Source: an uncultured Actinomycetes bacterium
Lineage (GTDB): Bacteria; Actinomycetota; Thermoleophilia; Gaiellales; Gaiellaceae
Length of the DNA: 64,000 nt
Direction: 5' to 3'
NCBI GenBank assembly: GCA_963823385.1
Contig: CAWGLI010000002.1
Coordinates: forward strand, 310,708 to 374,707
A program made the translations under genes and the position numbers. How positions within the stretch are numbered: position 1 is the stretch's first letter; every line of letters begins with the position of its first letter. The notes beneath the pieces are model-generated. The model ran no database searches. It was not told where the DNA came from and saw only the letters and a program-made list of their open reading frames with translations. Positions 6,731 to 18,005 of the stretch are shown here, one piece after another.

Positions 6731-6758
6731 TGCCCGAGCGTGCGGGAATGTCCCTTGA
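6731..6758 (+). repeat. 28-bp cassette-boundary repeat R1
   Basis: TGCCCGAGCGTGCGGGAATGTCCCTTGA. Confidence 0.85.
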
Positions 6759-6868
6759 TAGCCCGCCTGAGCGGCGTGTAGGCGGGTTGATCGATTCACA
6801 TGGATACTGCTGCTTGTCGTGGATGCCGCGAGTCTCATGCGCTACGACGCAGCTGCCGGGGCTGGCGG

Positions 6869-7951
6869 TTGACGCTGTTCTCGCCGGAGTCGCACGAGCC
6901 GCTCACGGATACGGCGTGGGACGCCGTCCGCGTCCGGTCAGCGATCGCCGGGGTCGTCGCCGGTGTCGAGGCGGCGTTCGAGGACGGGTGGCCCGTGCAT
7001 CCGGCCGACGAGCACGACTCCCTGACGACAAAGCGCCTCCGGTCCGTCTACATGGGTGGCGCAGGCGTCGTCGACGCGCTGCACCGCCTGGCGCGGCGCG
7101 ACTTCGTCGATCTGAGCCGCGACTACGTGCCATATCTCCAGGAGTCCGCCGTTTCGCCAATGGACTGGAGCGGCACCAATGACACGCGCAGCCTCTCGTT
7201 CGGCGAGACGGGCATCCGGCTCGTGTTGCAGCGGCTCGCGCCCTCGACCGCGAACCGCGACCGGCTTGCGGCTCTGATCGACGCCAACGCGCACGACGAG
7301 CACTGCGAGCTGATGTCGGGGAGCGCCGGCACGATCCTTGCCGGACGGGAAGTCGGCGCCGACGTGACCACAAGCGTCGAGTGGCTACGGTCGCAGCGCG
7401 ACGAGGATGGACTCTGGACACAGCTCGGATTGGGCGAAAGGCCAGTTCGCTATCTCGGGCCTGCGCACGGGTTCGCTGGGTGCGTACTCGCCCTCGGTGA
7501 CGTCGGGGGCGTCTCGGACACTGTGCGCCGCTACGCGGTCGAGGAGGATGGACTCGTCAACTGGCCGCCGGTCGCCGGGACGGGCCTGCTCGACAACCGC
7601 GACAAGCGGATTCGCGTGCAGTGGTGTCACGGAGCGCCGGGGATCGTTGCCACGCTCGGGTCGCTCCTAGACGAGGATCTCGTGCTCGGCGGCGGCGAGC
7701 TGACGTGGCGTGCGGGTCCGCTCGAGAAAGGCGCTGGCCTGTGTCACGGCACTTCCGGAAACGGATACGCCTTTCTCGTGCTGTTTGAGCGGACCGGCGA
7801 CGAGCTGTGGCTCATGCGAGCGCGCGCGTTCGCCATGCACGCGATGGAGCAGCTGCAACCCGAGCGCTACTCACTTTGGACGGGCTGTCTCGGGATTGCG
7901 CTCTACCTCGCAGACTGCGTCGACGGCGGCGGCACCCTTCCGATCCCGTGA
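6869..7951 (+). CDS. LanC-like (lanthionine synthetase C family) protein
   Basis: LGPAHGFAG, QWCHGAPG and GLCHGTSGNG motifs; TTG start inferred. Confidence 0.85.
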   Translation: MTLFSPESHEPLTDTAWDAVRVRSAIAGVVAGVEAAFEDGWPVHPADEHDSLTTKRLRSVYMGGAGVVDALHRLARRDFVDLSRDYVPYLQESAVSPMDWSGTNDTRSLSFGETGIRLVLQRLAPSTANRDRLAALIDANAHDEHCELMSGSAGTILAGREVGADVTTSVEWLRSQRDEDGLWTQLGLGERPVRYLGPAHGFAGCVLALGDVGGVSDTVRRYAVEEDGLVNWPPVAGTGLLDNRDKRIRVQWCHGAPGIVATLGSLLDEDLVLGGGELTWRAGPLEKGAGLCHGTSGNGYAFLVLFERTGDELWLMRARAFAMHAMEQLQPERYSLWTGCLGIALYLADCVDGGGTLPIP

Positions 7952-8061
7952 CACGCTGTGTATCGGCGCCGAGATATCAATCGGATGACGCCGAGTGCTC
8001 CAAACAGCTGAGGATCCGAAGCTCACTCGGACGGATGGACCCAGGTGATAGCGGCGTGTGT

Positions 8062-8089
8062 TGCGCCCGCGTTCGTGAATGTCACCCGA
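8062..8089 (+). repeat. 28-bp repeat R2 (degenerate)
   Basis: TGCGCCCGCGTTCGTGAATGTCACCCGA. Confidence 0.75.
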
Positions 8090-8116
8090 AGCTCCGACAG
8101 CCGATCACACGGGGAC

Positions 8117-8551
8117 TTAGTCCTCGATCTGCGCCAACCCGTTTCGCTGCAACTCATCGAGTGCGGTCCGCATGGCCTCGAGCTTCTCGGGCGAATGACC
8201 GACCCAATCGACGAGCTCGCCAACAACCCGCAGCGGTTCGCGGCTCCGGAAGGACTGCGTTGGATTTCCCGGGAACTTCTTGTCGGTCACGTTCGGGTCA
8301 TCCTCGAACTCCCCGGTTGGCTCGACGATGTAGATGCGCCCGCGGCCCTCACCGCCGGCGAGCTCGGCGCCCCAGACCGCAGCGTCGAGAGTGGCGCTGA
8401 AGTACACGTAGTTCATCACGCGGCCGGTCTCGAAGTTCGATTCGCGCCCGGGGACAAGCAGATCGCCCACCACGAGCTCTGCCTTCGTACCGTGCAGGTA
8501 CACGCCGGCCTCGTACACCTCGAACGGCACCGGCTCACGCAAGGCGCCCAC
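8117..8551 (-). CDS. arr: NAD(+)-rifampin ADP-ribosyltransferase
   Basis: YLHGTKA, YVYFSA, WGAELA, VEPTGEFEDDPNVTDKKFPGNPTQSFRS are Arr signatures. Confidence 0.92.
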   Translation of the reverse strand: MGALREPVPFEVYEAGVYLHGTKAELVVGDLLVPGRESNFETGRVMNYVYFSATLDAAVWGAELAGGEGRGRIYIVEPTGEFEDDPNVTDKKFPGNPTQSFRSREPLRVVGELVDWVGHSPEKLEAMRTALDELQRNGLAQIED

Positions 8552-8595
8552 GCGACGATGCCAGCGCCACGGCGGTGACGTGCGCGCTCCGTCGT

Positions 8596-9042
8596 TTAGG
8601 CTTCGAAATACGCCTCGTCGAAGCGAGGCAAGCCGTCGTCAGGGAGGTCGTCCCATGGTGCCCGCGAGGCGACGAACACGTGGAATTCCGGCCGAATACC
8701 GGGGTCGCCGTCGAGTGCGCCGAGTCGGACGCCAACCTCGTCCCCGTCGGGCCAATCCCCCCCGAACAGGCTCGACCCGCACACCGAGCAGAACGCCTTC
8801 ACCCGCCCGTCGTTCGGCCGGAAAACGCGGATCAAATCCTCGCCTGCGAGAAGCCGGAAGCTCTCCCGCGGAACCCTCCCCTGTGTCCCGCCGAACGCGC
8901 CAGAGTGCTTCCGGCATCGCGAACAGTGGCAGTGATTGGCCCAGAGGAAAGGCGCGGTCACCTCGAAGCGCACACCACCACAGAGGCACGAGCCCAGCAG
9001 CGGTTTCGCAGAACTAGGCTGCACGGCCACGTCAGGTGACAT
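8596..9042 (-). CDS. GFA/CENP-V family Zn-binding protein
   Basis: GSCLCG, CHCSRCRK and FCSVCGS motifs. Confidence 0.9.
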   Translation of the reverse strand: MSPDVAVQPSSAKPLLGSCLCGGVRFEVTAPFLWANHCHCSRCRKHSGAFGGTQGRVPRESFRLLAGEDLIRVFRPNDGRVKAFCSVCGSSLFGGDWPDGDEVGVRLGALDGDPGIRPEFHVFVASRAPWDDLPDDGLPRFDEAYFEA

Positions 9043-17327: not shown

Positions 17328-17351
17328 TCAGATCGCCTCCTCCAACAATGG

Positions 17352-17551
17352 GGGCGACCGGCGAGCGGACAGACCTCAACTGAGGCAGCAGCCAAGCTCC
17401 TATCAGGTCACGCTCGGCGGTCTCGGGAAGGCGGCGGCGACACAACGCTGGCAAGTCAGCCCTCAGGCGACATGCAGGAATGGAGTCAGCCGCCGCCGAC
17501 CCGAGTCTCTGCCGCTCGCCGGACGCCACCACCCGCCGAGACTGACATTGA
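17352..17551 (-). ncRNA. Putative IS110 bridge RNA
   Basis: Two stem/internal-loop domains. Guide-like segments CATTCCTGCA (17482-17473) and GCCAGCGT (17452-17445) match the repeat; TAGGAGC (17402-17396) and TTGAG (17379-17375) match the IS ends. Exact boundaries unknown. Confidence 0.75.
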
Positions 17552-17553
17552 GT

Positions 17554-17570
17554 GTAGGAATGTTCCCTGA
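17554..17570 (+). repeat. Right part of repeat R11
   Basis: GTAGGAATGTTCCCTGA. Confidence 0.85.
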
Positions 17571-17667
17571 ACTGTCGGAAGGCCAGTACTACGCCGCGAC
17601 GCCTATCAGCGCTCGCACCGATGCCGACAGACGACTAAGCGACCAGCCTGGTGGCTGAGGTGGGTAC

Positions 17668-17916
17668 ATGACGACTACGCCGACCCGAGTGGCACTCGGT
17701 GTGGGGTTGAGTGCTGCGATTCTTCTCGTCTACGGGCTGTTCCGGCCCGACAGCGTTGAGTTCTCGATCGCGTTCCTGATCGCCCCGTCGATCGCATTGC
17801 TATGGAGCGTGTCTCACGACGCCCCCGCTCCGGAGCGTCGAATAGCCGTCGTCGTCACCTGGCTCGTCGCAGCAGCCAGCGCCGCGACGGTGCTCGCCAA
17901 CTGGGTTCGCGGCTAA
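17668..17916 (+). CDS. Small three-helix membrane protein
   Basis: Hydrophobic 82-aa ORF with GAGGTGG RBS-like sequence upstream. Confidence 0.6.
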   Translation: MTTTPTRVALGVGLSAAILLVYGLFRPDSVEFSIAFLIAPSIALLWSVSHDAPAPERRIAVVVTWLVAAASAATVLANWVRG

Positions 17917-17982
17917 CGCGCCCTCGTCTCGGGGCACGGACACCGCTGGTCGGCACGCTCTCAGAGGGACGTGTTCGTGTTG

Positions 17983-18005
17983 TGCGCCAGCGCTGTCTCG
18001 CCTGA
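17983..18005 (+). repeat. Possible degenerate terminal copy of the repeat (R12)
   Basis: TGCGCCAGCG left half followed by TGTCTCGCCTGA; inverted right-arm-like TCAGAGGGAC at 17961-17970. Confidence 0.4.

Follow-up and report, generated by a model that had tools for sequence, protein, structure and literature searches.

In this work we describe a chromosomal array of 12 mobile gene units in an uncultured bacterium of the Gaiellaceae (assembly GCA_963823385.1, contig CAWGLI010000002.1, positions 310,708 to 374,707). The array occupies approximately 5.9–18.0 kb of this 64-kb stretch of DNA (hereafter the window) and is punctuated by a 28-nt motif, TGCGCSAGYGTKCGGGAATGTCCCYTGA. With a probability of about three quarters, this array represents a cassette system of Gaiellaceae/Thermoleophilia-type soil Actinomycetota, with units joined head to tail, a terminal site and a recombinase acting in trans. 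We observe a characteristic anatomy, units that are shared and reordered between genomes, a defined position of exchange, polarity of the arrays, no recombinase nearby and repeated targeting of the motif by IS110 elements. An earlier note on this DNA had proposed a cassette-capture array with its own, non-attC site. This proposal is borne out by units that are shared at 85–98% identity among different neighbours, with breakpoints at one position.

The window contains 11 copies of the motif, all on the plus strand between 6731 and 17571, one of them split by an IS110 element. The remaining ~52 kb of housekeeping DNA contains none. A consensus search of the 64 kb allowing up to three mismatches returned 7 copies against 0.00 expected by chance, and the other copies were recovered by repeat finding and direct reading. 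These methods together confirmed all copies that the earlier note had listed, including their strand. We then built a weight matrix from nine of the window copies and scanned it over the 64 kb. The nine array copies scored 34.6–49.1, followed by the 3' part of the split copy (14.1), and the best score outside the array was 12.9, in agreement with the claim that the motif occurs nowhere else in the window. The sub-patterns TGCGCSAGYG (8 matches) and GGAATGNNNCYTGA (11 matches) are likewise restricted to 6.7–18.0 kb and, except for one weak match, to the plus strand.

The motif is not peculiar to this genome. A scan with the exact pattern, using one genome per species, returned at least 118 stretches, and a scan of soil metagenome contigs at least 120; these loci of other genomes and contigs are labelled L0xx and so on. 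Nearly all of the genome matches listed come from metagenome-assembled genomes (MAGs) of Gaiellaceae, Gaiellales, Thermoleophilia or unclassified "Actinomycetes". Altogether, co-oriented arrays of the motif were found in more than 200 loci, taken from soil metagenomes and from MAGs of Gaiellaceae/Thermoleophilia, and they occupy unrelated chromosomal places. Many of the 8-kb genome tiles scanned with the weight matrix hold co-oriented arrays of 5–11 copies. The 334 copies found on 124 contigs (120 metagenome, 4 viral) include up to 13 on a single contig, and orientation is uniform in 85 of the 88 contigs with several copies. Since the IMG/VR viral contig collection yielded only 4 exact matches, we see no link to phages. 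Among sequenced plasmids none carries an array; single genes only (arr, DUF2182 with DUF1326) occur there, at 64–76% identity. In a logo of 216 copies, positions 1–28 are strongly conserved, positions -19 to 0 (..GAgAc..aC..CTCGCC) are less so, and the sequence beyond shows no conservation. The boundary reads CTCGCC directly followed by TGCGCSAGYGT.

To compare the DNA between motif copies, we aligned all loci against each other by BLASTN. This analysis revealed many segments of 500–1200 bp with 85–98% identity in MAGs of different species, embedded in unrelated flanks. After cutting every locus at motif position 1 and clustering the pieces, we obtained 32 unit families that are present in at least two loci with changing neighbours. 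For example, the unit U3, coding for an M29 peptidase, follows U2 in L007 and L016 and follows other units in L021 and L060. Five units of the window (arr, cupin, LanC, nitronate monooxygenase and YecM-like) have relatives in other loci; those of the LanC and nitronate monooxygenase units are ~70% identical. The same units occur in different orders in many related genomes, and we regard the system as real and mobile. Neither of the two outcomes that the earlier note had set against its own proposal was seen: the motif is not scattered among the housekeeping genes of the window, and relatives show no conserved gene order.

The usual unit body is one accessory gene in either orientation, and the median unit length is ~770 nt. 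The cargo of other loci includes cupins, glyoxalase/VOC, YCII, RibD_C, SnoaL, AHSA1, GNAT and MarR proteins, peptidases and the combination of PpoB2 with DUF1326. The orientation of 136 in-array open reading frames (ORFs) from related loci relative to the motif is 70:66. ORFs lie 30–70 nt from both unit ends, with the motif 5' of some genes and 3' of others. This orientation ratio and this spacing make a shared upstream promoter unlikely, and because gene orientation is unbiased, the units probably carry their own promoters. In the window, 9 of 12 units have the ORF co-oriented with the site on its 3' side. The earlier description of minus-strand genes with the repeat just after the stop codon is thus accurate for the window but does not hold for the related loci; the bias is local. 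Some units are empty. These elements of 42–135 nt keep both unit ends and were found in the window (13210–13306), in L050 (4851–4966), L043 and L031, and in L119 (15927–16015). Comparison of L119 with L121 showed that one such unit originated from an internal deletion of 331 nt, which stops 5 nt short of the following motif. Between the same two loci, identity is 99–100% in the array and over the 9.5 kb on its left side, and falls to ~91% from the first base after the last 28-mer (L119, 16667 onward), as if a recent transfer or recombination event had ended at the array end.

The shared units allowed us to locate the exchange point. For homologous units of at least 85% identity, we compared the motif copies at both ends position by position, using a first set of 25 left and 19 right junction pairs and an enlarged set of 71 left and 72 right pairs from 61 and 50 loci. 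Both sets agree. Identity at positions -14 to 0 follows the 5' unit (0.60–0.90) and is at chance level for the 3' unit. The variable positions of the 28-mer (3, 6, 12, 14, 21, 23 and 26) are co-inherited with the 3' unit and are at chance level for the 5' unit. Fisher tests returned 1.7e-13 for the 28-mer positions and 1.5e-37 for positions -8 to 0. Junction print-outs give the same picture: rare 28-mer variants go with the right-hand DNA, and the ..CTCGCC end goes with the left-hand DNA. The 28-mer belongs to the unit on its 3' side, which the earlier note had missed. Linkage switches without any gradient across the 28 conserved bases. Therefore, exchange is confined to positions 0–3, unlike RecA-type exchange, which spreads over the homology. 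An imperfect palindrome, CTCGC(-5..-1)-CTGC-GCSAG(4..8), is centred on this point; it can be extended to 10-bp arms with 4.7 of 10 positions complementary, versus 2.7 in a control region. One position behaves unlike every other variable position: the C or T at position 9 (AGCG versus AGTG; for example, window 10167 and 11786) is linked to neither unit (0.48 and 0.47, versus 0.47 by chance), and it may be a hypermutable CpG.

The 3' end of the arrays is marked by a different sequence. In the window, the earlier note had noticed a possible relic of the motif at 17983. This sequence, TGCGCCAGCGCTGTCTCGCCTGA (17983–18005, plus strand), is not a decayed copy but a separate, conserved 23-nt site present in many genomes. 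Its consensus, TGCGCSAGCG-N4-CTCGCC-YGA, contains positions 1–10 and the final YGA of the 28-mer and lacks the GGGAATG block. Co-oriented full motifs lie only 5' of this terminal site in 17 genome loci, only 3' in 1 and on both sides in 2. The corresponding numbers for metagenome contigs are 12, 0 and 2, so that 29 loci stand against 1 in the reverse arrangement. On its 5' side there is in most cases an ordinary unit end (..CTCGCC); on its 3' side, unrelated host DNA takes over, frequently a tRNA or the 3' end of a convergent gene. A unit shared by L113 and L115 abuts the terminal site in L113 and is separated from a terminal site by two further units in L115. This is the pattern that insertion at the terminal site would produce, although these two arrays occupy different chromosomal places. 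We therefore regard the terminal site as a candidate primary insertion site analogous to attI or attB, although no integrase gene adjoins it.

With these boundaries, the array of the window can be read unit by unit, all on the plus strand of the motif. It starts near 5876, and not at 6731 as first described. The leftmost unit (5876–6730) lacks a 28-mer of its own, but its YecM-like metalloenzyme gene (~5931–6686, plus strand; Pfam YecM) shares 88–92% DNA identity, with homology over 5876–6560, with motif-bounded units in six loci (L079, L042, L056, L027, L039 and L021), and for this reason we include it. In soil metagenomes, over 2400 relatives of the YecM-like cassette protein were found at E<=1e-20; the majority are 197 aa long and 85–92% identical. 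It is among the most widespread cargo and is also found in clusters with decayed motif (L124, L130). Unit 1 (6731–8061; 28-mer 6731–6758) carries a LanC-like gene (6800–7951, plus) and is 71% identical to a unit of L023. Unit 2 (8062–9165; 28-mer 8062–8089) codes for the rifampin ADP-ribosyltransferase Arr (8117–8551, minus) and a GFA protein (8596–9063, minus); homology to L043 (88%) starts exactly at 8062, motif position 1. The 28-mer of unit 3 (9166–10158) contains a 1-nt insertion (9166–9194) and is followed by a nitronate monooxygenase gene (9196–10134, minus). Unit 4 (10159–11777; 28-mer 10159–10186) contains a DUF2182/PpoB2 gene (10245–11279, minus) and a DUF1326 gene (11080–11724, minus), a pair that also occurs in L124 and on a Nocardioides plasmid. 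A cupin gene (11821–12225, minus) forms the cargo of unit 5 (11778–12310; 28-mer 11778–11805), which is 92% identical to L072, and a second DUF1326 gene (12430–13077, minus) that of unit 6 (12311–13209; 28-mer 12311–12338).

Unit 7 (13210–13306; 28-mer 13210–13237) is the empty unit of 97 nt. It is followed by unit 8 (13307–14345; 28-mer 13307–13334) with an APH-family phosphotransferase gene on the minus strand (stop at 13363), and by unit 9 (14346–15382; 28-mer 14346–14373) with an ORF (14454–15308, plus) that has no Pfam match. Unit 9 also contains a half-site, TGCGCGAGTG, at 14387–14396, 14 nt past the 14346 copy, which may be the remnant of an almost wholly deleted unit. Unit 10 (15383–16294; 28-mer 15383–15410) holds an ORF (15425–16000, minus) and a 2TM-domain ORF (15849–16169, minus). 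Unit 11 (16295–17982) begins with the split 28-mer, of which positions 1–11 lie at 16295–16305 and positions 10–28 at 17553–17571; its body (17572–17982) contains one ORF (17668–17916, plus). Pfam confirmed the annotation as LanC-like, Arr, GFA, nitronate monooxygenase, DUF2182/PpoB2, DUF1326 (twice), cupin, APH, 2TM and IS110 transposase. The terminal site and the leftmost unit had both escaped the first description.

The array, with a G+C content of ~0.66 compared to ~0.70 in the flanks, ends ~30 nt past the stop codon of a convergent diol/glycerol dehydratase gene (18037–20292, minus; Pfam), a 751-aa ORF in which the large and medium subunits are fused. A small-subunit gene (20289–20696, minus) follows. 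The rest of the window is ordinary chromosome, with genes for enolase, pyruvate kinase, Prs, Pth, L25 and sulfate assimilation. The Prs protein shares 85% identity with its Gaiella occulta counterpart, and its closest named relatives are Gaiellaceae MAGs. Some 3 kb to the left of the array, apparently in core chromosome, there is a heliorhodopsin gene (1959–2717, minus; Pfam PF18761, E 8.5e-100). An Rfam scan of 5.5–18.5 kb at E<=1 gave one chance match only. Exact-protein look-ups returned no record of the amine oxidase or the Arr of the window, and for the SDR protein the only match was on a contig of 2 kb.

The insertion sequence in unit 11 (16306–17551, minus strand; transposase 16311–17327, minus) contains the domains DEDD_Tnp_IS110 (PF01548) and Transposase_20 (PF02371). 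It sits inside the 28-mer at the GT of positions 10–11, which is present on both sides of the element. In L098, L186, L246, L248 and L257, genes for related transposases lie directly beside the motif, each 36–39 nt from position 1. In L098, the insertion of the element (3349–4690) after position 20/21 could be read directly; the other four were placed by distance. Including the window, IS110 elements have inserted within the motif in 6–7 loci. Since the insertions occupy two different motif positions, at least two IS110 lineages have specialised on the motif. A parallel is provided by the IS1111/IS110 elements known to target integron attC sites or repetitive extragenic palindromes (REPs) through a guide RNA (PMC11187229, PMC11208160), and the two insertion positions suggest guide-RNA retargeting within a single motif. 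The repeated insertion shows that the motif is an abundant and tolerated landing site.

How might such units move? Read on the motif strand, a unit consists of the strongly conserved 28-bp left end, a body and a weakly conserved right end (..GAgAc..aC..CTCGCC). Units are joined head to tail. Each junction, CTCGCC followed by TGCGCS, forms the imperfect palindrome at the centre of which, at positions 0–3, strands are exchanged, and the 3' end of each array is the distinct 23-bp site abutting ordinary host DNA. In the mechanism that we consider, the enzyme may be a dedicated site-specific recombinase whose gene lies elsewhere in the genome and which excises a unit as a circle with one composite site, in which the right end is joined to the 28-mer. 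This circle could then re-insert at a junction or at the terminal site, and by such re-insertion arrays would grow and shuffle like integron arrays. A core read as 4 bp with a central, non-palindromic TG between two 10-bp arms would resemble the crossover site of a small serine recombinase. Alternatively, a core of 7-bp arms with a 6-bp spacer would resemble a simple tyrosine-recombinase site.

Several observations weigh against this mechanism. The enzyme was not found. We searched six-frame ORFs from all 64 kb and from ~245 loci (~1.5 Mb) by regular expressions and by phmmer with XerD, IntI1 and TnpR, for which positive controls passed; neither the window nor the ~245 loci revealed an array recombinase. 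Pfam analysis of the candidate genes selected by codon-position G+C across the window, of which the stretches at ~23.8–26.5, 43.8–45.2 and 48.1–50.1 kb contain none, gave no recombinase either. Furthermore, the left end of the window array does not coincide with a motif, and the right unit end and the left palindrome arm are weakly conserved. We observed no excised circle, empty site or clean whole-unit polymorphism between strains, and the only strain-level indel examined, that between L119 and L121, is an internal deletion and not the gain or loss of a whole unit. The accessory clusters L124 and L130 hold the same genes with few or no motif copies; therefore either sites decay or genes also move by other routes. 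Finally, the related loci were selected by the motif itself, and the junction pairs in the linkage test are phylogenetically non-independent.

The lack of a recombinase at either array edge, also reported in the earlier note, is the reason to assume that the enzyme acts in trans. Tyrosine recombinases occur only in L097 (truncated), L194 and the viral contig L148. These are unrelated island integrases, and three is, by our estimate, about the chance number for soil actinomycete DNA. The L097 gene (5036–5679, minus) lies ~60 nt from a terminal-like site and close to tRNA-Ser genes (4590–4853). We considered its product as the array enzyme and rejected it: the protein is a member of an extensive family of short island integrases encoded next to tRNA genes. 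No motif lies close to its more distant homologues in L133, L143 and L144, and the L146 orthologue is full-length and located next to tRNA-Ser genes without an adjacent array. Hence, the L097 copy is a 5'-truncated bystander. Its truncation falls exactly where the array with the terminal-like site begins; the gene may have been destroyed by the array or by an event at the array end. We also clustered 646 ORFs of related loci in search of a gene that recurs at array edges. Only cargo families and large STAND/cyclase proteins emerged.

The absence of an enzyme in cis, together with the unrelated chromosomal places of the arrays, would also be expected if the units were non-autonomous, transposon-like elements. 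A transposase acting in trans, for example of the HUH/Y1, IS200/IS605 or REP-associated tyrosine transposase (RAYT) kind, would insert them beside a resident end, and tandem arrays would form without a platform. The asymmetric, sequence-defined unit ends with their exact boundary and the unbiased gene orientation are consistent with this idea. Subterminal hairpins, however, found no support. We detected no complementary covarying column pairs, RNAalifold predicted no structure on either strand, and the single-stranded (minus-strand) folding of ten window junctions gave z values of -0.95 to +0.94, no better than shuffled sequences. A possible hairpin upstream of the 28-mer (GGCGA-N8-TCGCC) was discarded too, because its pairing was no better than with shuffled partners. 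We saw no Y1 or other transposase besides IS110, and the distinct terminal site and strict co-orientation fit the logic of a platform or att site better. We therefore consider transposon-like units unlikely.

Conservation without structural covariation is also what a protein-binding site would show. The motif could thus be an ordinary intergenic repeat, REP-like or the site of a regulatory protein, with shuffling due to RecA-dependent recombination and horizontal transfer. Short repeats are able to support deletions, and REPs too are targets of IS110 elements (PMC11187229, PMC11208160). What makes this explanation improbable is first of all the confinement of exchange to positions 0–3, where a gradient over the 28 bases should have appeared. 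In addition, the copies are strictly co-oriented whatever the orientation of the genes, which have the motif on their 5' or their 3' side; 11 copies are packed into 12 kb of the window and none into 52 kb of housekeeping DNA; and a polar terminal site exists. We found no hairpin, no inverted pairs and no dispersal within the window, as REPs or REP doublets (REPINs) would require. A regulatory reading (ECF/SigH-type or sigma-70 promoter, terminator) was tried and abandoned: inspection by eye showed no GGAAT-N18-GTT, and a consensus scan for promoters and terminators returned nothing at the motif.

The weakest explanation, a true integron remnant, that is, a cluster of attC sites lacking an integron integrase (CALIN), with attC diverged beyond recognition and served by a conventional IntI elsewhere, accounts for the gene-site-gene layout and the cassette-like cargo and could appeal to the sequence-homogeneous attC sites of sedentary integrons (PMC4889954), but we give it hardly any credence in view of the missing RYYYAAC/GTTRRRY boxes, the lack of hairpin or covariation on either strand, a conserved part that consists of 28–47 nt of primary sequence, the ORF orientation of 70:66, the absence of IntI-like matches in ~1.5 Mb of related loci besides unrelated island integrases, and a host phylum without complete integrons (PMC4889954, PMC9024848).

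The cassette system with a trans-acting recombinase remains the explanation that we prefer. In large surveys, complete integrons were not found in Actinobacteria, for reasons that are described as unclear (PMC4889954, PMC9024848), in line with the suggestion of the earlier note that the system is possibly undescribed in this group. In full-text literature, subscription journals aside, we found nothing relevant on integron-like arrays in Gaiellales or Actinobacteria, and 13-nt strings of the motif appear in no paper. The system looks like an undescribed counterpart of the integron. A broader proposal, about which we are slightly more doubtful than confident, is that Actinomycetota invented the integron principle independently, with a sequence-defined double-stranded site, a polar terminal insertion site, self-expressed cassettes of either orientation and a recombinase unrelated to IntI whose gene lies apart from the arrays. 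Such a system would be widespread in Gaiellales/Thermoleophilia and would provide a major route for the exchange of accessory genes, including those for the antibiotic-modifying Arr and APH. If this is true, this organisation of accessory genes arose more than once. It would help to explain the exchange of small adaptive genes, including those for rifampin- and aminoglycoside-type modifying enzymes, in abundant and mostly uncultured soil Actinomycetota. Once found, the enzyme would provide a new recombinase/site pair with a short, sequence-defined site of 24–47 bp. As a simple sequence tag, the motif could allow thousands of mobile cassettes to be harvested from soil metagenomes, as is done with attC-targeted methods.

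Comparison with known systems delineates what is shared and what is particular. Like integron arrays, the arrays consist of co-oriented short, mostly single-gene units separated by a recombination site. The kinds of cargo are the same (Arr, APH, cupin, VOC, GNAT and toxin-free small enzymes). Units are exchanged between species and reordered, cassettes are independently mobile with breakpoints at one position of the site, and a distinct end site may be comparable to attI. The site is homogeneous within the lineage, as are the Vibrio cholerae repeats (VCRs) of Vibrio, and is visited by site-specialised IS110/IS1111 elements. In contrast to integrons, the site is a primary sequence of 28–47 nt and not a folded R''-L''/L'-R' hairpin; in the 216-copy logo, the attC boxes R'' (RYYYAAC) and R' (GTTRRRY) are absent at the boundaries. 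Exchange occurs within a short palindrome, at one edge of the conserved sequence. Gene orientation in related loci is unbiased, and a common Pc promoter is therefore unlikely. Pfam, regular-expression and phmmer searches found no integron integrase next to the array and no IntI, the host phylum is without integrons, and one genome can carry several arrays at unrelated places. The arrays resemble CALINs, as the earlier note had put it, in having no neighbouring integrase; by the attC features described above, they do not contain the two or more attC-scoring sites that define a CALIN.

The pdif modules of Acinetobacter plasmids provide a second parallel, with small cargo, 28-bp sites, a recombinase encoded elsewhere and varied contexts. 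Sites of pdif type follow the 11-6-11 plan of XerC/XerD sites, in which the inner arms are palindromic, and they alternate in orientation around modules. The sites described here are co-oriented, their inner arms (CCAGC and GAATG) are not complementary, and exchange occurs at positions 0–3 and not in a central 6-bp spacer at positions 10–15. A likeness to dif itself was also examined and dismissed: in an ungapped comparison with the E. coli dif sequence, only the blocks TGCGC and ATGT were common. With REPs and bacterial interspersed mosaic elements (BIMEs), the motif shares the character of a short, conserved intergenic repeat that serves as a landing site for IS110-family elements. REPs, however, form palindromic hairpins that are dispersed over whole genomes, frequently as inverted pairs, and are associated with RAYT transposases. 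The motif is non-palindromic overall, co-oriented, confined to cassette arrays in the loci compared, and bounds the units that are horizontally exchanged. The system is thus integron-like in function and layout, yet differs from the integron family in each of its molecular criteria, and we use the term integron-like to express analogy and not membership.

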